A stretch of DNA of 21,587 bases. Source: an uncultured bacterium. GTDB taxonomy: Bacteria; CSSED10-310; CAZUFC01. Shown here in pieces: positions 784-21,587 of the stretch. Positions within the stretch are counted from its first letter, which is position 1. Every line of letters begins with the position of its first letter. The position numbers were made by a program, and so were the translations under genes. The stretch covers positions 67,850-89,436 of the forward strand of contig CAZUFC010000011.1 of NCBI GenBank assembly GCA_964619725.1, read 5' to 3'. The notes beneath the pieces were generated by a model. That model did no database searches, had not been told where the DNA came from, and was given only the letters and a program-made list of their open reading frames with translations.

Positions 784-1011
784 AATTTTACATCCCATGT
801 CATTAGCTGATAAAAAATTGCATAATGTGTAACGAAAATCCAACAATCGATCAAAAAATTTCAAGGAAAAAAGTCGCCCCGCTCGCAGGTCAGTTGATTA
901 ATCGAATATGGATACGATTCCAAACCATACGATGCATCATCGTAAATCATCATTAGCGGCTGTACATAAACTCAATTCCCGATTCAAATTTCGATGCTGG
1001 ACAAGCGCTGC

Positions 1012-1188
1012 AGTTTCTGATCCACAAACGAAAAAACTTTTCTCAAGGTAAGGAAGGCAAGGATTTGCGAAGGAAGCGCAACCTGTCCCGCCGGAGCCTT
1101 GGCGTAAGCGGATTGCACATAGGTTGACTGAACAAATCCGCAGCCTAACGCAGCATTGAGGAAAATTGGCCGTTTGTGGACAGAAAAT
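1012..1188 (-). repeat. Intergenic palindromic repeat element (MITE/REPIN-like), copy 1
   Basis: Terminal inverted repeat TTTCTGATCCACAAACG ... CGTTTGTGGACAGAAA. Its reverse complement aligns without gaps over 177 nt to 6214..6390 (about 133/177 identical) and at both ends to 7944..8075. Confidence 0.85.
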
Positions 1189-1406
1189 CATTAACATCAT
1201 AACTTACTTATGAATCTCGATTTATCAGTGCTCTTCCACCGAACGCGGAAAGGCTAAAATGTGCAAAATTTTCATGCTAGAACACAGTATAAAAAATCAA
1301 TCGATTCAATATGTTAGGATGCCCATGCAAGAGTTCTGAAATTCATTAGAATAAATACGAGACTCCTGTCCTAAAATATAAAATTAAATCTTTATAAATT
1401 CACTAT

Positions 1407-1434
1407 TTGACAAAAAAATATTAACTCTTATAAC
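1407..1434 (+). promoter_or_regulatory. Candidate sigma70 promoter
   Basis: TTGACA-16 nt-TATAAC, 56 nt upstream of ATG 1491. Confidence 0.55.
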
Positions 1435-1490
1435 GGATAAGGCGACCTTTTTCGTTTCTCGCTAGACTCAGAAAGGAAGAAAAACAAATT

Positions 1491-3593
1491 ATGGCATTTA
1501 TAAAAAAATTTTTTACTTTTTCCTGTTTCAGCCTTTTTCTCGTATTGCTATCCTCTTTTTCGCCAGTGGATGGTGCGATACGACGAGTGCCCACGGAATA
1601 TTCCACCATTCAAGCGGCCATCGATGCTGCAGGAACGGGCGACATTATTCTTGCGGCGGACGGAACGTATACGGGACCGGGCAACAAAAACATCGATTTC
1701 GGCGGCAAATCGATCACGGTTCAATCAGAAAACGGTCCGGAAGCATGCATCATTGATTGCGAAAACAACGGTCGCGGTTTCTATTTTCAAAATGGCGAGA
1801 GTCTGGATTCAATCCTGGACGGCTTTACAATAAAAAACGCGTATTATGAGAGCGCCGGCGGCGGAATATATTGCCGTTACTCATCTCCGACCATCATCAA
1901 TTGCATTATGACGGCGGGTTGGGCCTGGGAAGGCGGCGGGATGTATTTTTACGTTTCCGACGCAGCCGTTCATAACTGCATTATTCACGACAACCTGCTC
2001 ACTGGCGGAAAAGGCGGAGGAATAAGATGCAATTATGCGTCACCCACGATCAGCGAGTGCATAATCGTCGACAATTCAGCATCGCACGGCGCCGGCATAT
2101 CCATGGACCGTTGTGATTCAATTATTTTAGACTGCTACCTGAACAACGACGGCGTCTTTGGAGGCGGTATTCATGCCGATCAGTATTCCAATCCTCTTAT
2201 CGTAGGTTGCGAAATAACGGAAAACGCCGGAGGCGGGATTTACTGCGACGATTTCGCATGTCCGGAGATAATTAACTGCGTCATCACTCAGAATTATCGG
2301 TCAAGAGGTTCAGGGATATATTGCGAATTCTTTTCCAATGCTGTTATCCAAAATTGTCTTATCACCAATAATACGAGCTCTGAAAACGGCGGAGGAATCT
2401 ATATTTACAATGCCACGCCTGTAATTTACAGCACAACGATCGCCTATAACGCGGCGAGCGACGGAGGAGGCATTCACTGCTTGTTCAATTCGCATCCGGA
2501 AGTAACGGATTGCATCATCTGGGGAAACACGCCGAACGGCACGAACAATTCTGACCCCGTGGTCAATTATTCCATTACTCAGAGATATCACTCCGGTACG
2601 GGAAATATTAATTCGTCGCCATTGTTCGTCCCCGGACCATACAGCAATTATTATTTAAGCCAGGTCGCTGCAGGGCAAACATCCGACAGCCCGGCCGTCG
2701 ATTCGGGAAGCGATGATGCTTCGCTGGTCTGCTTCACTTCGAGCGCCGGGACGTTTTGTATGGACGAACTGTCGACACGGACGGATGAATTGCCCGACAC
2801 AGGTCAAGTCGATATGGGATATCACCACCCGGCTGTCATAGCCACGCCGACTGAAATTCCCTCTTCCACGCCGACGGGTACCCCGCCGACAGAAACGACC
2901 ACCCCGACATACACTTCAACGCATACTCCTTCGCCGACAGCCACCGTACCCACGGACACGGCAACCCCGTCGCCCACAAAAACCTCTTCGCCCACTCCTA
3001 CCAATACAGCCCCTACCGACACCGCCACACCCACCGCCACATCAACTCCGTTTACTCCATTGCCTTCCGGAACCCCCACTAATACACCTTCTTCCACTCC
3101 TACAGAACTTTTCACCCTCTTCCCGCTCCACACCAATACACCCACAGCATCACCGACCTTCTCCCCTACAAATTTACCCACCATTCATCCGTTAAATACG
3201 TTTACTCCCACACAAACTCCATCAGCCACATTCTCCCCCACGCCTCCCGGCACCATTCATCCCTTTTATACGTCGACTTTCACTCAATCCCCGACCCCGA
3301 CATACACAGCCACTCTGACGGCAACATTGACGCCGACAGAAAGTCACACGGCATCGCCCACCATGACTCCAACCAATTCGCTGACCCCTTCCCCAACCGC
3401 TTCGCCGACGTTTTCACCGACACTGACTCCATCCTCCTCCCCTTCCCCTGTCGAAACCGCCTCCCCGACTGCTACGCCCTCCATTCCGCCTGTTCCGACT
3501 TTGCAAACGCCTTCGATTTTCCTGATCGTGTTGCTGCTGAGTCTGCTGATCGGCCTGAGTTTACATAGGTCCCGCCGCCTGGTGCGATTCTGA
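1491..3593 (+). CDS. Secreted right-handed parallel beta-helix (pectin-lyase-like) protein with Thr/Pro/Ser stalk and IPTL-CTERM-like C-terminal anchor
   Basis: Signal peptide; [15 protein letters not shown] beta-helix cap; repeated [14 protein letters not shown] / I..N turns; about 210 aa T/P/S-rich region; C-terminus PPVPTL + hydrophobic helix + HRSRR. Confidence 0.9.
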
Positions 3594-3646
3594 CGCATGA
3601 CATTGATCTCAATTTCTTTTTTGAGTTAATAACTGTTTTACCGGAT

Positions 3647-4672
3647 TCACCGAAAAATCTTTTTTTTCCTGAAAATATCAAACATCCCGCTCAATATGCC
3701 GGCATCCATTACAATCACATCCCAGACCGTCAAGAAAATGAGAGGGAAGCATTCGAGATAACTTCTGTGCTCAAGAAAGAAGAACCAGAAGGGAGTATAA
3801 AGCAGAGCGAAGAGCAGAAAAGAGAGTGTGCCGAGGAGCGACGACAGGGAGGAAAAAGGCGCTGCCGAAGCAAACAGGAAGGCCAGCGGCAGAATGATAA
3901 GGCTTATCATCTGCGAGAGGGGATGATGAGATTTATTTTCTGCTGATTTGGCGCAATCTTTGATGAAATCGCTGGAATGGCCTGAGAAGAGTGCGTTTGT
4001 TTGATTTCTGGTCATTCTGAATTTTCTTTTAGAAAAAGATTTCAAATTGTATCGTGCAGCATGCTCCACGAGGAGACTCTTGTTCAATCTGATTTTTCTC
4101 CCGTGACTCGCCAGTCGATAACCCAGCTCTTCATCTTCGACGGTGGGTTCCCTGATGTTTTCTCTGAATCCCCCAATTTCTTCAAAATGGCTTTTCATAA
4201 CGGCAAAGCAGTATGTGGCGGCAATGCCAACGAAATCATGATTTATATGCATAAAAGTATAATGATAATAGTCGTTCTGATAAGCCGATATAAGGTCCCA
4301 ATTTTTTTCGGACAATTTGTAGATACCCTGAACGCCTGAAATTTCGGGATGTTCTTCGAAGGAGGAGGCGATTTTCTGAAGGGTTCGTTCAGTAATGACG
4401 ACGTCGCCGTCGATGAATAGTATTATTTCGCCTTGAGCTGCTGAAACGCCTCTGTTTCGGGCTACGGCGGGTCCGCTTCTTTTTTCCAGATTGATCAGCG
4501 TTGCCGGAAATTCCGCCGCTATATCAGCCGAACGGTCCGTAGAACAGTCATTCACGACAATGCACTCAAAAGGCTCGTAATGCGACTCGAAGACTGCGTT
4601 AAGACACACTTTTAAAGATTCTTCATCATTAAAAACCGGTATGACGACTGAAATGCGAGGATTTTTCATCAT
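3647..4672 (-). CDS. Family 2 glycosyltransferase with C-terminal transmembrane helices
   Basis: ISVVIPVFN, VVNDCSTD, GPAVARNRG, FIDGD (DxD), GGF.E, VEDEELGYRL motifs; hydrophobic C-terminal segments. Confidence 0.92.
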   Translation of the reverse strand: MMKNPRISVVIPVFNDEESLKVCLNAVFESHYEPFECIVVNDCSTDRSADIAAEFPATLINLEKRSGPAVARNRGVSAAQGEIILFIDGDVVITERTLQKIASSFEEHPEISGVQGIYKLSEKNWDLISAYQNDYYHYTFMHINHDFVGIAATYCFAVMKSHFEEIGGFRENIREPTVEDEELGYRLASHGRKIRLNKSLLVEHAARYNLKSFSKRKFRMTRNQTNALFSGHSSDFIKDCAKSAENKSHHPLSQMISLIILPLAFLFASAAPFSSLSSLLGTLSFLLFALLYTPFWFFFLEHRSYLECFPLIFLTVWDVIVMDAGILSGMFDIFRKKKIFR

Positions 4673-4771
4673 TTTTTTTCTAACCCGTAGGGAAAGGGAA
4701 CAGGTTTCGCCGGATGATTATACTTTAATTTACTGTAATGGCAACAAACCGCGAAGTTTTTTTTCGACTTT

Positions 4772-4800
4772 TTGACATGAGGGCTTATTATCATTAATAT
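4772..4800 (+). promoter_or_regulatory. Candidate sigma70 promoter for the REC-HDOD gene
   Basis: TTGACA-17 nt-TAATAT, with an overlapping TATAAT at 4798-4803. Confidence 0.5.
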
Positions 4801-4895
4801 AATGGTTACCAGGGACTGGCCCCAGAGTCCTTGAATTCGCCGGGGTCTCGATAAACCTTTTTAAAATAAAATAAACGGTCGAGGAAGATACATTC

Positions 4896-6134
4896 ATGAA
4901 GCCGAAAAAACATCTTTTGTTTATTGACGATAAACCGAAAGTAGCAGACGCTTTTTTGCGAATAATGGAATTCAACAGGCATTTGTGGGAAATTGAAACT
5001 GCGGTGAGCGGGGAGGCGGCGCTGGGAAGACTGGCTAAAGACCCTTTCGACGTCATCGTCATAGATATGGGAATGACGAACACAGATGCCCGGAAGCTGA
5101 TGAACGAAATAAAAAGTTCTTATCCCTGGATAATTCGGATAAGCCTGTTCGTAGGACCGACGAAAGACAAGCTGATTTCGCCGACCGGCCTGATACAGCT
5201 TTCGTTGAGCAAGCCTGATGACGTCCAGCATTTAAAAAGTACCCTGGCGCGCGCTTACAATCTCAGCAATATTTTATCGAATACAAAGCTTCGTTCCGTG
5301 GTATCGAGCCTGGAGACATTGCCCGGACGGCCATCGCTCTATAATGAACTGACCAGGGAGCTGCAGTCGTTATATCCGTCTGCAAAAGAAGTCGGAAGAA
5401 TCATTGAGCAGGACATGGCCATGAGCTCCAAGATACTGCGAATAGTGAATTCAGCGATGTTTTCACTCCCCAATCAGATATCCAGTCCCACCCACGCCGT
5501 AAATTTACTGGGTCTGAATACGATAAAAATGCTGGTTTTATCGAATCAGCTTTTTTCGCAATTCAACGTAAAAAATGCCGCTGAATTCGGGCTGTCCGGT
5601 ATCTGGAATCACAGTCTGACGGTGGCTTCTAATGCGAAAAAAATAGCGTTAACGGCCGGGAAGGATCAAAAAATTGCCGAAGATGCTTCCATCGCAGGCT
5701 TGCTTCACGATATCGGGAAACTTATTTATGCTTCGAATCTTCCCGAGGATTATAAAAAAGTGCAGGAATTAAAACAGACGGAAAACATGAATGAACCCGA
5801 AGCGGAATATTCGATATTCGGAGCGAATCATGCCCATCTAGGCGCTTACCTTCTGGGATTATGGGGGCTGCCTGATGCGGTGATCGACGCCATAGCTTTC
5901 CATCATGAACCCGCTTCCTTATCCGTCAGTTCGTTCAACGCGTTGACGGCCGTTCATATCGCCAACGGCTTCGCCAAGTCCCATGACCTGGATGATGAAA
6001 CTTTTCAGGACCATCTGTTCGATGAACTAAATAAAGAATATTTCGACAAATTAGGCTACGATGATCAATCCCTGCACAATTGGAGGAAAGCCGTCGTATC
6101 AGAAAATAATCAGCAGGAAATACGCTCCATTTAA
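4896..6134 (+). CDS. Response-regulator receiver + HDOD domain signalling protein
   Basis: N-terminal LLFIDD...FDVIVIDM...SKP receiver pattern; HDOD motifs IEQDMAMSSKILRIVNSA, AVNLLG, WNHS, GLLHDIGK, LGAYLLGLWGLP, AIAFHHEP. Confidence 0.92.
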   Translation: MKPKKHLLFIDDKPKVADAFLRIMEFNRHLWEIETAVSGEAALGRLAKDPFDVIVIDMGMTNTDARKLMNEIKSSYPWIIRISLFVGPTKDKLISPTGLIQLSLSKPDDVQHLKSTLARAYNLSNILSNTKLRSVVSSLETLPGRPSLYNELTRELQSLYPSAKEVGRIIEQDMAMSSKILRIVNSAMFSLPNQISSPTHAVNLLGLNTIKMLVLSNQLFSQFNVKNAAEFGLSGIWNHSLTVASNAKKIALTAGKDQKIAEDASIAGLLHDIGKLIYASNLPEDYKKVQELKQTENMNEPEAEYSIFGANHAHLGAYLLGLWGLPDAVIDAIAFHHEPASLSVSSFNALTAVHIANGFAKSHDLDDETFQDHLFDELNKEYFDKLGYDDQSLHNWRKAVVSENNQQEIRSI

Positions 6135-6213
6135 AAATATCCTCCGCATAAAATCGACAATCAGCAAAAAGATATTTTTGAGTCTCCGGTTCGTCAGCGT
6201 GCCGCTCCTTTCC

Positions 6214-6390
6214 AGTTTCTGACCACGGACGGCGAACTTTCCGTGACTCTCCGTCAGGCTGCGGACTTGTTCGGTCAACAAATAACCAATCCTCTTACGC
6301 CAAGGCTTCAGCGGGACTGGTTACGGCTCCTTCGCAAATCCTTGCCTTGCTTGTCTCTAAATCAATTCTTCCCTTCATCGATCAGAAGCC
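6214..6390 (+). repeat. Intergenic palindromic repeat element, copy 2 (inverted relative to copy 1)
   Basis: Ungapped 177 nt alignment to the reverse complement of 1012..1188, including the shared TCCTTCGCAAATCCTTGCCTT and CTTACGCCAAGGCT blocks; terminal stem partly decayed. Confidence 0.85.
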
Positions 6391-6440
6391 TGCAGAGCCT
6401 TTTTCCCCCAGCGTTTGATAACTTTTTCGTCAATTCGCGC

Positions 6441-6468
6441 TTGAAAACCTGAGATAAAAAGTTATAAA
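6441..6468 (+). promoter_or_regulatory. Candidate sigma70 promoter for the Ppm1-like/HAD gene pair
   Basis: TTGAAA-16 nt-TATAAA; overlapped by one arm of a 10-bp inverted repeat (6418-6427 / 6456-6465). Confidence 0.35.
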
Positions 6469-6515
6469 GATATGATGATTCAACTGTCGAACTGTCGTGG
6501 GAGGAAAGGAAGTTA

Positions 6516-7241
6516 ATGAGAGCAATGGAAACGATGTTGGTTGTACCTACTTTTAATGAGAAGGAAAACATTGAAGCGCTTCTGGATGAGATTCTTAATT
6601 TAAAGAAAAAATGTCATATAGCGGTTGTGGACGACGAGTCGCCGGACGGCACCGGACAAATCGTCGATCAATATGCACGGAAATATCAGGAAATTCATCC
6701 GCTCCACAGAAAAGGAAAAAGGGGCCGGGGCTTAGCCGGCATCGCAGGTTTTTGCTATGCACTCGATAAGGGAGCTGAAAAAATAATCGAAATGGATGCC
6801 GACTTTTCTCATCACCCCCGGTATATTCCACAAATAATTGAAGCTTTGGATGATTATCCCGTTGTTTTCGGCTCACGTTTCGTCAAAGGAGGACGCGACG
6901 CCAGGCCGGGAGCATTTCGCAGGGCAGTCAGCCGCGCCGCCAATGCGTATACGAGGATAGTATTGGGTACGAACGTCCGGGATTGCACTTCAGGATACAG
7001 GGGATACCGGGCTGAGACGCTTGAATCCATCAAAGTCAGAAACATTTCCACCTGGGGTCCGGGGGTTTTGAGCGACGTCCTGTACCGGTTGATTCTTAAG
7101 GGATATGAAATTAAAGAAATTCCCATCATATTCGAGGACAGAACGAAAGGCGAGTCGACTCTCACGACGAAAATACTGCTGGAAGGTTTATATAACGTCT
7201 TAAAAGTTAAATTGTCTGTAAATGAATCGGATATCAAATGA
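6516..7241 (+). CDS. Polyprenol-monophosphomannose synthase-like (Ppm1/DPM1-like) GT2 glycosyltransferase
   Basis: VVPTFNEKENI, VVDDESPDGTG, EMDADFSHHP, GSRFVKGG, DCTSGYRGYR, EIPIIFEDR..GES motifs. Start may be 6516 or 6525. Confidence 0.9.
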   Translation: MRAMETMLVVPTFNEKENIEALLDEILNLKKKCHIAVVDDESPDGTGQIVDQYARKYQEIHPLHRKGKRGRGLAGIAGFCYALDKGAEKIIEMDADFSHHPRYIPQIIEALDDYPVVFGSRFVKGGRDARPGAFRRAVSRAANAYTRIVLGTNVRDCTSGYRGYRAETLESIKVRNISTWGPGVLSDVLYRLILKGYEIKEIPIIFEDRTKGESTLTTKILLEGLYNVLKVKLSVNESDIK

Positions 7242-7266
7242 AAAGAATATATTACGGAGTACGGCA

Positions 7267-7941
7267 ATGAAAAACGGACTGATCTGTTTTGATGTCGACG
7301 GTACCTTGATAGACGGGACCGTCTATATTTGGAAAACACTCCATGAATACTTCCGGACGGATGTATCTGAGCGGCAAAAGGCATTCAGAGACTATTTCGA
7401 CGGAATAATCTCTTATCGCCAATGGGCTGAACACGATATAAAGCTTCTTAAATCAAAAAACGCTGATAAAAAAAGCATTGCTAAAGCTTTCGCCTGCCTG
7501 GCGCTCATTCCCGGCGTGGAAGAAACCCTCAGATATTTGAAAAAAAGAGACCATCGCCTGGTCATTATATCCGGGTCCGTCGATCTTGCTTTGGAAACAG
7601 CGTTTCCTCAATATTCCCGCTATTTCGATGCCGTTTTTCTAAATCGTTTGCTTTTCGATTCGTCAGACGCGCTTGTCGGCGTTCAGACCACGCCCTATGA
7701 TCTGGCCGCAAAAGCCGACGGATTGGTGAACATGGCGGCAAAATTCAATATCCCGCTCCAAAGGACCGTATTCATCGGCGACAATGAAAACGACCTGTCC
7801 GCAGCCGAAACTGCAGGATTGTCCATCGCCTTCAATTGCAAAAGCCAAAAACTCGAAAAAATAAGCCGGCATGTGATTGCCGAAAAAAATTTAAAAAAAA
7901 TTATTCCCCTCATCGATCAATGGTTCGCCCGGACCGAATAA
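7267..7941 (+). CDS. HAD-superfamily IB phosphatase (phosphoserine phosphatase-like)
   Basis: FDVDGTL (motif I), IISGS (II), K (III), FIGDNENDL (IV), IAFN. Start moved from 7222 to ATG 7267, which has GGAG 7 nt upstream and removes the overlap with the upstream gene. Confidence 0.88.
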   Translation: MKNGLICFDVDGTLIDGTVYIWKTLHEYFRTDVSERQKAFRDYFDGIISYRQWAEHDIKLLKSKNADKKSIAKAFACLALIPGVEETLRYLKKRDHRLVIISGSVDLALETAFPQYSRYFDAVFLNRLLFDSSDALVGVQTTPYDLAAKADGLVNMAAKFNIPLQRTVFIGDNENDLSAAETAGLSIAFNCKSQKLEKISRHVIAEKNLKKIIPLIDQWFARTE

Positions 7942-7943
7942 CA

Positions 7944-8075
7944 GGTTTCTGTTCATAAACGGCTCATTTTCCCTGTTGCTGCATAGTCACTCAGACGCAG
8001 AAGCAATACGCATCCTTTGCAAATCTTTGCCTTCATGACCTTAAGACAAAATCATCCGTTTATGGATTGGAATCT
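7944..8075 (+). repeat. Intergenic palindromic repeat element, copy 3 (shorter, different centre)
   Basis: Left ~39 nt and right ~69 nt align to copies 1 and 2; terminal stem TTCATAAACGG ... CCGTTTATGGA; begins 3 nt after the HAD stop codon. Confidence 0.8.
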
Positions 8076-8232
8076 CGCCCCCCATCTCCTGGAGTATTTT
8101 TTCCTTGGAATGAGTTCATGGACAGGCGCTGAACGGCAGAATTCTTTCAGAAAAATCCAAATCCTTCTTGACAACGGCATTCAGATTCATTAATAGAAAG
8201 GAGCAAACAAAAAATATTTTTTCACGGAGGTC

Positions 8233-18550: not shown

Positions 18551-21500
18551 ATGATACGGATGATCCTGCAGGCATTTCGTTGTAAACGTTTTTTCTTTTC
18601 ATTAATTTTCCTTTCGCTGGGCATTTTTTGGGGGAAATTCAACGATGAAACGGAGGCCGGCCTTTCGCCTTATTCCGTAAAACGTTCAGAATTTCATCTC
18701 AAAGGTTCGAAATGCACGCCGACACCGATTAAGACGCCGACTTTAAAACCGACGCAGACCGAAACAGTTCCGGCGGCGCCGACTGTCTCATCAACATGCG
18801 TGACCATACGTCGCGACGTATCGGGAGAGGTCTGGGATACTTATGTCAGGAAGGATTATCCTAATTATAATTACGGCGAACAATCATATCTTTACGGCGG
18901 TAAGGAAAATTATGCTCTATGCCATTATCCGAGAAGGTCGTTGATTCGATTTAACATTGACGTCATACCGCCGGAAGCCATGATTGACTCTGCAACGTTT
19001 TATATTTATACGGCGACAGCGAAGTGTGGAACGGTAGAAGTTCACCGGGCGACTGTAGGGTGGGAGGAAAGCCAGGTAACGTGGAATACTTTCGATAACA
19101 ATTTCGCTGCCGAAATCGAGGGAGCTTTTATTACCGATTCCGTCGGATTCTATTACATCGACCTCACCGGTCTGGTCCGCGATTGGCATTGGGGATTGCT
19201 GGAAAACGAAGGAATCGTTCTAATCGAATATCTGAACGATTATGATCGTTTTATCAGCAGCGAATATTCTAATTTGAACTACAGACCTGCCTTAGAAATC
19301 TGTTATCGGCAGGCGCTTTCCACAGCGACGGCATCGCCGGAACCGACTTTTACACCGGTTCCGCCCACATACACGCCTACGCTTTGGCCGACGATAGTCC
19401 CGACTGTTGCGGCCACGGCCCGCTGTATTATTTATGGCGTTCACGACGAGAGCTTAAATGATTCGCAATTTTTTACGCTTGATCCTGCATCCGGGAACGC
19501 GCAATATCTCGGCGATATTCATCTGAATAAGGACATTGAAGGTCTGGATATTCATCCGGTTACGAATCGGATTTATGCTGTCAGCGGCAGCGACAGCTCC
19601 TCCGACGGAATGCTTTATGCCGTTGACGGAGAAACAGGCGCTTTAACATCGATTGGAAGTTCCGGTTTCAGTGAAATCACGGCTTTATCATTCAGACCAT
19701 CGGACGGGACTTTGTGGGGGGCTTCAGAAGGAACAGGTTTAATTCAAATCGATATCGCTACAGGCGCCGGGCATCTGGTCTATAACGTGGGCCTGAATAT
19801 TGAAGGACTGGCCTGGAACAACAACGGCGACATATTGTATGCGACCTCCGGAAACAATATCTATGCATACTTTCCGGCTGGGGGATACTTGTCCTTGCTG
19901 GCCTCCAATTTACCGGGCGAAACGGAAGCCCTGGAAATCAGGCCGGACGGCAAATTGTGGGGCGGCCTGGATGAAACGGGAACTTCCGGGATTGTGTTTG
20001 TGTATGATTTAAATGCATTGACGGTTATCGATATGCTTTCCATCGATACTTTTACCGATATTGAATCTCTTGCCTGGCCTGATTATTGTTCTCTGACGCC
20101 GACGCCTGAACCCACCGAAACTCTGCCGGTCATCCCGACGGAAACGCCGACGCCGGCACCTACCATTCAAACAACTCCGATACCCACTGCCGATTGTTTG
20201 CTTTATGCCGTCCACGACGAAAACCTTAACGATTCTCAATTCCTGACTATCGACCCCTCAACGGGAACGGTATTGCCGCTCGGCCCATTGCACCTTAACC
20301 AGGATATCGAAGGACTTGACGTTCATCCTATGACTAATGTCATCTACGCATGCGCAGGCAGCGACGGTCAATATGACGGCTGGCTTTTTAAACTCGATCC
20401 CCAAACAGGGCTTCTGTACCAATGGGTTTATACGGGATTCAGCGAAATAGTCGCCTTGTCTTTCAATCCCGTTGACAGCGTCCTTTGGGGTTGGTCGGAA
20501 GGCCTGGGTCTGATCACAATCGATGAGACGACAGGAACCGGGGTTTTGCAGTATTCTTCCGGGCTGAACGTGGAAGGGCTGGCCTGGAATTATGCGGGCT
20601 CCCTTCTTTATGCCGCATCAGGAACGGACCTCTATGTTTATGATCCGTCGTCATCGACTTTCAATTTTTTAGCAGATAATCTGCCGGGAGAAACAGAAGC
20701 TCTCGAAATGCGTCCTGACGGAATGCTCTGGGGCGGAATCCACGAACCGGGCGTGCAGGGCAGGATATTCACTTACGATATTAATACACTGCAGGTCAGA
20801 GCAGAATTCGACCTTTGGATTGACGATTATACTGACATTGAATCACTGGCCTGGCCGGAATATTGTTTATTTACTCCTACGCCGTTTCCGACGCTTTCGC
20901 CCACATTTATTCCCTCACGGACTCCCGAACCCACCGTCACTGATTCACCGACGAAAACGCCGACTCCCTCTATAACGCCGACGGAAACTTTCACCATTAC
21001 TCCTACAGTTACGCCGACCGAGACATTGACCCCTACCCGCACCCCTACGCTTACGCCTACCTGCCCGCCGACTCTCACTCCGACCATTTCTCCTACTAAA
21101 ACATCAACGATGTCTCCCACAGGCACGTTAACTCCCACAGAATCCCCTACGCTGTCGCCGACATTTACCTCAACACCCACCCGCACGCCGACTTCATCTC
21201 CCACTTCAACCCTTTCACCGACGCACACGGCCACCGCCACATGTTCACCGACATTAACGTCTACCGGCACGCTGACGCCGACTCTTTCACCCACGCTTAC
21301 CGCCACATTGACTCCTACTGATACCCCTACTCCTACAAAATCACCCACGCTTTCGCCCACTTTATCCCCTACAGTCACACTCACTCCGACCAAATCGCCG
21401 ACTCTGTCGCCCACCGTAACGATGACCCCGACCAGAACGCCCACCAGCACGCCGACACGAACCTTATCGCCCACCACATCGCCCACGCTCACTCAAACCA

Positions 21501-21587
21501 GCTCCCCAACCGCAACGCTATCCCCGACAAGAACACCTACACTGTCTCCCACAACCACCCTTTCGCCCACGCATTCGCCGACACGCA
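18551..21587 (+). CDS. Large secreted protein (>1012 aa, 3' end outside the window): DNRLRE/CBM96-like domain, two tandem beta-propeller domains, long Ser/Thr-Pro stalk
   Basis: Hand translation from ATG 18551 (AAAGGGAG SD) is open to the window end. Hydrophobic N-terminus; DTYV....PNYNYG...RSLIRFN...IP.EAMIDSATF...WEESQVTWN...DLTGLVRDW...NEGIVL...FISSE...RPALEI (DNRLRE pattern); two ~222 aa repeats; ~240 aa T/S/P tract. Absent from the ORF track. Confidence 0.92.
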   Translation, partial: MIRMILQAFRCKRFFFSLIFLSLGIFWGKFNDETEAGLSPYSVKRSEFHLKGSKCTPTPIKTPTLKPTQTETVPAAPTVSSTCVTIRRDVSGEVWDTYVRKDYPNYNYGEQSYLYGGKENYALCHYPRRSLIRFNIDVIPPEAMIDSATFYIYTATAKCGTVEVHRATVGWEESQVTWNTFDNNFAAEIEGAFITDSVGFYYIDLTGLVRDWHWGLLENEGIVLIEYLNDYDRFISSEYSNLNYRPALEICYRQALSTATASPEPTFTPVPPTYTPTLWPTIVPTVAATARCIIYGVHDESLNDSQFFTLDPASGNAQYLGDIHLNKDIEGLDIHPVTNRIYAVSGSDSSSDGMLYAVDGETGALTSIGSSGFSEITALSFRPSDGTLWGASEGTGLIQIDIATGAGHLVYNVGLNIEGLAWNNNGDILYATSGNNIYAYFPAGGYLSLLASNLPGETEALEIRPDGKLWGGLDETGTSGIVFVYDLNALTVIDMLSIDTFTDIESLAWPDYCSLTPTPEPTETLPVIPTETPTPAPTIQTTPIPTADCLLYAVHDENLNDSQFLTIDPSTGTVLPLGPLHLNQDIEGLDVHPMTNVIYACAGSDGQYDGWLFKLDPQTGLLYQWVYTGFSEIVALSFNPVDSVLWGWSEGLGLITIDETTGTGVLQYSSGLNVEGLAWNYAGSLLYAASGTDLYVYDPSSSTFNFLADNLPGETEALEMRPDGMLWGGIHEPGVQGRIFTYDINTLQVRAEFDLWIDDYTDIESLAWPEYCLFTPTPFPTLSPTFIPSRTPEPTVTDSPTKTPTPSITPTETFTITPTVTPTETLTPTRTPTLTPTCPPTLTPTISPTKTSTMSPTGTLTPTESPTLSPTFTSTPTRTPTSSPTSTLSPTHTATATCSPTLTSTGTLTPTLSPTLTATLTPTDTPTPTKSPTLSPTLSPTVTLTPTKSPTLSPTVTMTPTRTPTSTPTRTLSPTTSPTLTQTSSPTATLSPTRTPTLSPTTTLSPTHSPTR
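19424..20866 (+). repeat. Intragenic domain duplication (19424-20089 and 20195-20866)
   Basis: CIIYGVHDESLNDSQF...DIESLAWPDYC versus CLLYAVHDENLNDSQF...DIESLAWPEYC, about 59% aa identity by hand alignment, separated by a PT linker. Confidence 0.92.

Follow-up and report, generated by a model that had tools for sequence, protein, structure and literature searches.

The 21,587-nt stretch analysed here (the window; contig CAZUFC010000011.1 of assembly GCA_964619725.1, from an uncultured bacterium) contains three intergenic copies of a short palindromic element. The element belongs to a high-copy family that very probably represents a non-autonomous MITE (miniature inverted-repeat transposable element) mobilised in trans by a transposase of the DDE type, with the window copies as old members; we put the probability of this reading at about 85%. 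It is a new family of an ordinary known element type, from a lineage of which few members have been sampled, with an unusually tidy insertion signature. The reading is carried by features observed in the genome, namely the anatomy of the family, its target-site duplication (TSD) and target, its copy number, its arrays and its intergenic bias. The host assembly is a metagenome bin with a completeness of 90.9% and a contamination of 6.5%.

Anatomy, insertion signature and copy number of the family

The three window copies were aligned, and the resulting profile was searched against the 9.17-Mb genome (344 contigs). It recovered its own members with E values of 2e-59, 3e-57 and 1e-31, together with 289 further matches (292 in total). 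The ends of the family were then defined from 152 near-full genomic copies aligned with their flanks. In its present master form, the element is non-coding, measures 200 nt and is composed of two hairpin modules that are connected by a 4-nt link. The first module is a rod of approximately 144 nt (GTTTTTGTCCATAAACGG ... CCGTTTATGGATCAAAAAC) bounded by GTTTTTGTCCATAAAC and GTTTATGGATCAAAAAC; the second is a 50-nt hairpin, GTGRCTGTCCAGCATTAAATTTTGAATCGAGATTCGAGTTTRTGGACAGRCAC, bounded by GTGRCTGTCCA and TGGACAGRCAC. The terminal inverted repeats of the unit, GTKNYTGTCCA on the left and TGGACARNMAC on the right, were nearly invariant among 112 elements. Conservation ran approximately 58 nt beyond the right end given in a preliminary description of the window, through the second hairpin (136 right flanks).

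The forms of the family fell into sizes of 50, ~66, ~74, 200 and 232 nt. Those of ~74, ~66 and 50 nt are deletion derivatives in which the outer ends were retained: the ~66- and ~74-nt forms consist of one inner end plus the second module, and the 50-nt solo form is the second module alone. Copies consisting of the first module only (14 listed) looked truncated or interrupted and were rejected as independently mobile units. At several loci, family copies were interrupted or adjoined by the motif GGCATTGATCAAAAATGCGTCTTTTGAGGTTACAATTC (e.g. in the flanks of C32:656-791 and C86:22651-22786; C numbers denote contigs), and a related motif, GGGACTGATCAAAC, recurred in the flanks of family copies. 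Both motifs probably represent further small repeat families.

For the statistics of the TSD, 112 elements with both ends located were used, obtained from 141 elements with enough flank out of 160 near-full matches. At flank positions −5 to −1, the left and right sides agreed in 88-90% of the elements versus 31-78% in random pairings, and position −6 was occupied by T to the left and to the right (in 102 and 111 of 112 elements). No duplication was seen at position −7 (0.44 versus 0.42). When the flanking 6-mers of the 139 internal full copies were compared, 86 matched at 6/6 and 17 at 5/6 positions, 29 matched at 4/6 or fewer, and the ends were not located in 7. TANNTA fitted 75 of 109 perfect duplications; with the flanking bases included, the preferred target is the palindrome yTANNTAr. 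The pattern 'right end, spacer, left end' had a 6-nt spacer in 63 of 64 two-strand matches. As this pattern is nearly its own reverse complement, the matches correspond to approximately 32 junctions, i.e. some 32 abutting pairs that have one 6-nt spacer in common. The same 6-nt junctions were present in contigs of four public runs.

A search with the family model (nhmmer) yielded 694 matches, 572 of which were non-overlapping and were classified as follows:

Full units: 143 of 572 matches
Cut by a contig end: 129 of 572 matches
Solo 50-nt hairpins: 90 of 572 matches
Right-hand parts: 84 of 572 matches
Left parts: 46 of 572 matches
Left-to-middle: 31 of 572 matches
Other: 49 of 572 matches

This number, together with the measurable TSDs, bears out the earlier proposal of a high-copy selfish element of this lineage; the possibility that the three window copies are the only ones genome-wide is contradicted by the same 572 matches. 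The family was present on 219 of the 344 contigs and covered 62,346 of 9,173,508 bases (0.68%). Of the 688 contig ends, 134 lay within the family, which accounts for roughly a fifth of the breaks between contigs of the 9.2-Mb bin. Full copies are young, with a median identity to the consensus of 92% (107 full copies), and 25 of 5,671 pairs were at least 99% identical. Crude genes covered no more than 10% of the match in 364 of 394 internal matches; they span 83% of the genome, and 70% of the yTANNTAr sites lie within them. Relative to co-directional neighbour genes, 27 copies had the same and 28 the opposite strand, giving no bias. One 21-kb stretch that includes a family copy occurred twice with 99.995% identity (C36:23040-44003 and C117:3666-24629), likely as a result of assembly or bin redundancy, or of a very recent duplication.

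In the mechanism that we propose, a transposase acting in trans would bind the 11-16-bp terminal repeats (core CTGTCCAYAAA), make cuts staggered by 6 bp in the palindromic yTANNTAr and join the element in, which would give the 6-bp duplication. Each insertion would recreate the target on both flanks; new copies could therefore land beside old ones and build arrays with one 6-nt spacer. Selection would remove copies inside genes, which we propose as the reason why the survivors are intergenic, and old copies, including the three in the window, would then decay.

The three window copies and their pairing

The similarity of the three intergenic copies, on which the preliminary description was built, is real and far beyond chance. 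A repeat search of the window identified copies 1 and 2 as repeat arms at 1015-1186 and 6216-6387 (172 nt, 76% complementary). In the MAFFT alignment, copy 1 (minus strand) and copy 2 were in register and gap-free over their common part, and copy 3 had both ends in common with them, with an internal gap between. Open reading frame (ORF) and Pfam analyses placed all three copies between genes. The features of the window are:

950..955, no strand: TSD of copy 1, TCATTA (TAATGA in element orientation); same 6-mer at 1188-1193
956..1187, minus strand: copy 1, complete at 232 nt and assigned to the older 'long' subfamily; identity to the 200-nt consensus of 83%, with ~36 extra central nt
956..1008, minus strand: second hairpin module ('P') of copy 1, 53 nt, omitted in the preliminary description; extension as in the family flanks
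1188..1193, no strand: second TSD copy of copy 1, TCATTA; 6/6 match to 950-955
6215..6400, plus strand: copy 2, old decayed member of the 'long' subfamily; 69% identity to the consensus, first module alone recognisable
7945..8129, plus strand: copy 3, old member with internal deletions; first module with 80% identity to the consensus
7894..7919, plus strand: short stretch resembling the right end of copy 2, possible remnant; 26 nt with 85% identity to 6359-6384

With the family model (202 positions), copy 1 was matched at window positions 1186-954 (model positions 2-202, E 3e-45), copy 2 at model positions 1-153 (E 7e-19), and copy 3 at window positions 7945-8130 (model positions 1-201, E 1e-21). 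Copy 1 has the same second-hairpin extension as the family, and copy 3 still terminates in the second hairpin's right arm (GTTCATGGACAGGCGC). The ends assigned earlier stand as the bounds of the first module, but the elements themselves reach further: copy 1 comprises 956-1187 and copy 3 7945-8129. The perfect TCATTA pair around copy 1 had been missed because the end of the element was misplaced. Relative to the consensus, copies 1 and 2 contain ~36 extra central nt, which defines the older 'long' subfamily. The window copies are old relics of earlier waves; they are decaying, and nothing suggests that they have any function in their own right.

The neighbour genes belong to Pfam families of a beta-helix protein, an HDOD response regulator, two GT2 glycosyltransferases, a HAD hydrolase and an FG-GAP/ASPIC protein. 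The sole ORF overlapping the copies encodes 87 amino acids over copy 1 (937..1200, minus strand) and, unlike its neighbours, had no Pfam match. Copy 3 starts immediately after the TAA stop of the HAD-hydrolase ORF 7222..7941 (window 7939-7944). The stretch 7894-7919 sits within the 3' end of the same ORF; it forms a short repeat family of two copies, and the resemblance may therefore be due to chance.

The palindromic structure of the copies could also reflect a structured non-coding RNA or a cis-regulatory hairpin (terminator or mRNA stabiliser) under selection for pairing. In agreement with this idea, the RNA folds of copies 1 and 3 were better than those of shuffled sequences (z −3.09 and −2.84), and the long rod described earlier for copy 1 was confirmed. 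Copy 2, however, folded no better than shuffles (z −0.35; 61 of 200 shuffles at least as stable). The terminal stem (26 bp) and the second hairpin were almost invariant among 102 distinct young copies, and many pairs of the inner rod were broken one-sidedly, in 34-59 of these sequences. Across 39 older copies, a Watson-Crick pair was preserved in 28 of 43 terminal-stem cells with double changes and in 17 of 47 such cells in the inner rod, with about one third expected by chance and with the counts representing cells, not independent events. The claim that pairing is kept despite divergence thus holds for the terminal stem but not for the inner rod, which decays.

The compensatory change CACAAA/TTTGTG versus CATAAA/TTTATG noted earlier is likewise real and is a feature of an older subfamily. 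In copies with exact surrounding motifs, the stem pair was T/A 109 times and C/G once, and the C variant of the stem was also present in the A-type larger element considered below. Judged from the sequence, this change concerns the putative transposase-binding ends. Two ends fitting one transposase would yield the symmetry of the stem without any RNA, and we ascribe the compensatory stem changes to this symmetry. Rfam gave no match, neither in the window at the gathering score nor at E ≤1 for a young 200-nt copy and the solo hairpin. The absence of a strand bias to neighbour genes (27 versus 28) further argues against an RNA, and TSDs and common-spacer arrays are signatures at the DNA level. 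An RNA under pairing selection is therefore considered very improbable.

Search for the partner element

An autonomous copy with a transposase gene between family ends was sought among pairs of ends that have identical 6-mers and lie 400-6000 bp from each other. The sole candidate, C99:24143-25945, was rejected as a segmental duplication rather than a transposon, as its outer flanks were also alike. Here, two 50-nt family units enclose a small cassette of two genes that, as judged by eye, resemble an AbrB/MazE-type antitoxin and a PemK/MazF-type toxin. None of the ORFs between inverted end matches on C52, C36, C116, C88, C10 and C5 was transposase-like as judged by eye. As in the window, where the preliminary description saw no cognate transposase, no transposase-bearing copy was found in these searches of the genome.

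Contig-break ends with the family end core after TA-rich 6-mers were of three types:

A-type end (GTTCCTGTCCACAAAATAGAAAG...): four contig-break ends
B-type end (GTGCCTGTCCATAGTGCGCC...): three contig-break ends
C-type end: three contig-break ends

C302 at its end and C309 at its start had more than 49 nt of the B-type end in common and were both flanked by the 6-mer TAATTA, as would suit opposite sides of a single larger element that had inserted. In BLAST searches of the contig-break ends against the genome, the interiors of the A-, B- and C-type elements were absent from the bin, and none of these elements could be linked to a transposase. We tentatively consider that the partner may belong to a hitherto undescribed group of insertion sequences, with G...C termini, inverted repeats of more than 49 nt and a strict palindromic 6-bp TANNTA target recreated on both flanks. 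Such elements would seed their own landing sites and build arrays, and a bare 50-nt hairpin would be movable. If so, this hairpin would rank with the smallest known mobile DNA units of bacteria, and all of this would apply to a phylum from which no more than 13 other genomes have been sampled.

A partner from the IS21 family (IstA transposase and IstB ATPase), with its full copies lost from the bin, appears unlikely, though several observations point towards it. On C262, a degenerate B-type end (GTTGCTGTCCGCAGTGCGCC..., 87% identity over 61 nt to the C171 end) was located ~330 nt upstream of a fused IstA/IstB remnant, which was assigned by an IS21 transposase C-terminus (35.7 bits) and by IstB (74.1 bits with NCBIfam, 65.2 bits with Pfam). 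An IS21-family element with an intact IstB (255 amino acids, 266 bits) was found at C315:1-2889. Its transposase is apparently split into an N-terminal helix-turn-helix frame (16-360) and a catalytic frame (399-1520), and the contig begins inside the element, with the left end outside. IS21 members also make short duplications, 5 bp in the case of IS5376 (PMC10122671). However, the same source describes a transposase for which a pair of direct repeats is required at each end and which cuts at a terminal 3' CA, and an IS5376 without a strong target preference. The target of the present family is strongly specific, its ends are G...C (right end ...GRCAC), and its 50-nt form has one site per end. 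Family termini were not seen in the visible end region of the C315 element, and C262 is a patchwork of nested repeats in which the adjacency may be accidental; the remnant is a lead, not a link.

No transposase gene bounded by family ends was recovered in searches of the genome by transposase family. For IstB, these yielded C315 and the remnants. The rve genes comprised an IS481-like gene on C103, situated within a larger element without family ends, and one gene on C341 that was likewise unbounded. For DDE_Tnp_1, one IS4-like gene was found on C132, outside an adjacent decayed copy and not bounded by family ends. ISL3 was represented by one fragment on C18, and no DDE_3 transposase was present in the genome.

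Six RAYT-like Y1 genes of ~226 codons were identified (Pfam Y1_Tnp 39.6 bits, cut-off 23; NCBIfam REP_Tyr_transpos 67.4 bits, below the cut-off of 80):

C5:24948-25660
C35:6271-6978
C22:69861-70568
C22:72240-72947
C27:20638-21339
C12:95546-96247

They were 85-94% identical at the DNA level, and two formed a 2.4-kb tandem duplication with 99.9% identity. Five loci had a common palindrome on the 5' side of the gene (AATTCAAATTTTTTGAAAAAAATTCAAAAAATTTGACC...) that differs from the family; the 5' side of the first C22 copy lay outside the printed stretch. A multi-copy RAYT family is unusual, RAYTs being described as single-copy. These genes, and the palindromic, intergenic nature of a family with hundreds of copies, would be expected for a REPIN/REP-like element spread by a RAYT (Y1, IS200-like) transposase via single-stranded hairpins. 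Yet Y1 transposition is not known to leave a TSD, and most full copies of the family are flanked by a 6-bp duplication. Moreover, none of the six genes had a family match within 3 kb, and their upstream palindrome is a different one; in PMC3116915, RAYT genes are reported to be present once and to have REPs of their own on their flanks. The REPIN/RAYT alternative raised in the preliminary description is not supported by these data and is regarded as extremely unlikely.

Outside the host genome, BLAST against 40 other genomes, 13 of them from the same phylum and the closest available, gave no match, so the comparison with relatives proposed earlier revealed no further family member. The 18-mer end with up to 2 mismatches occurred 231 times in this genome versus 9 times for a reversed control, and was absent from every one of the 13 genomes of the same phylum. 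Exact scans were negative for metagenome contigs (A-end 20-mer, hairpin 24-mer) and, outside the own genome, for genome contigs (hairpin 24-mer, A end, B end). No plasmid or phage was matched by BLAST of a 200-nt copy. The family was not found in print, in a literature search that was aimed at IS21, MITEs and REPINs generally and cannot exclude a description elsewhere. The locus was present in four public DNA runs of one study; no RNA run was among those listed as containing it. The contigs of the public runs stopped inside elements, and no joint skipping an element was observed.

Several results weigh against a MITE moved in trans. No autonomous copy was found in the genome; mobilisation in trans by a DDE-type transposase is therefore inferred only. 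Of the 90 solo 50-nt forms, both ends were located in 53, and 18 of these 53 had a perfect TSD. In the window, copies 2 and 3 had no recognisable TSD (TAACAG versus TGAACG around copy 3, 3/6). An empty site or a presence/absence polymorphism was not seen, with no close relatives available and with public contigs that break at the element. Finally, given the contamination of the bin, a few copies could stem from another organism.

Significance and relation to known systems

The family represents a clean natural data set, with a sharp palindromic target, a fixed 6-bp stagger, a graded deletion series and self-seeded arrays, and could help to define the minimal substrate of its transposase. It would be of more interest to specialists in mobile DNA if the partner proved to be a new insertion-sequence group. 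Copies of the family may be mistaken for small genes or RNAs, as exemplified by the ORF 937..1200.

At least nine other repeat families were found at contig ends (clusters of 24, 22, 18, 16, 14, 14, 12, 10 and 10; e.g. TTCTGAACTCCTGACAAGAATGTCAC..., GAGCTTTTTCCGCTGTGCAGG... and TTCACATCTCCTGACATTGACTG...), with ends unlike those of the MITE. Mobile DNA is very abundant in this genome, and most interiors of the contig-end repeats were absent from the bin. In the window, positions 2840-3430 and 20090-21586 contain imperfect 6-/12-nt periodic repeats (ACNCCNAC...) in the ORFs 1491..3593 and 18551..21586, where they encode Thr/Pro-rich linker-like tails.

With REPIN/REP elements and their RAYTs, as presented in PMC3116915, the family has in common short palindromic intergenic repeats, hundreds of copies and RAYT-like genes in the same genome. 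It differs from them by its TSD and by RAYT-like genes that are not flanked by the family and are multi-copy here. Compared with the ends of IS21 elements (IS5376; PMC10122671), similarities are a short TSD (5 versus 6 bp), internal repeats resembling transposase sites, and the single family-end-like sequence beside an IstA/IstB remnant. The family, in contrast, lacks the terminal 3' CA, one site per end suffices in the 50-nt form, the repeats within the 200-nt unit are inverted and not direct, and the target is strict.

Bacterial MITEs are defined as small (about 50-600 bp) and non-coding (PMC6382973). All of the features given there were observed, including forms of 50-232 nt, terminal inverted repeats, a fixed 6-bp TSD and dispersed copies, with the exception of a demonstrated parent. 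Comparable bacterial MITEs include the Correia/NEMIS and ERIC elements, which are named in PMC3116915. Another is MITEAba12, which is mobilised by ISAba12 (PMC6382973): like it, the family is small, non-coding and multi-copy, with terminal inverted repeats, a TSD of fixed length and a preference for AT-rich targets, and is presumed to be mobilised in trans by an element of the same genome that shares its ends. The TSD of MITEAba12 is 9 bp without a sequence pattern (PMC6382973), whereas that of the present family is 6 bp at the palindromic yTANNTAr. In comparison with MITEs such as MITEAba12, no transposase-bearing parent was recovered for the family, which is further distinguished by its two-module architecture, nested deletion forms down to 50 nt, approximately 32 common-spacer arrays and several hundred copies per genome.

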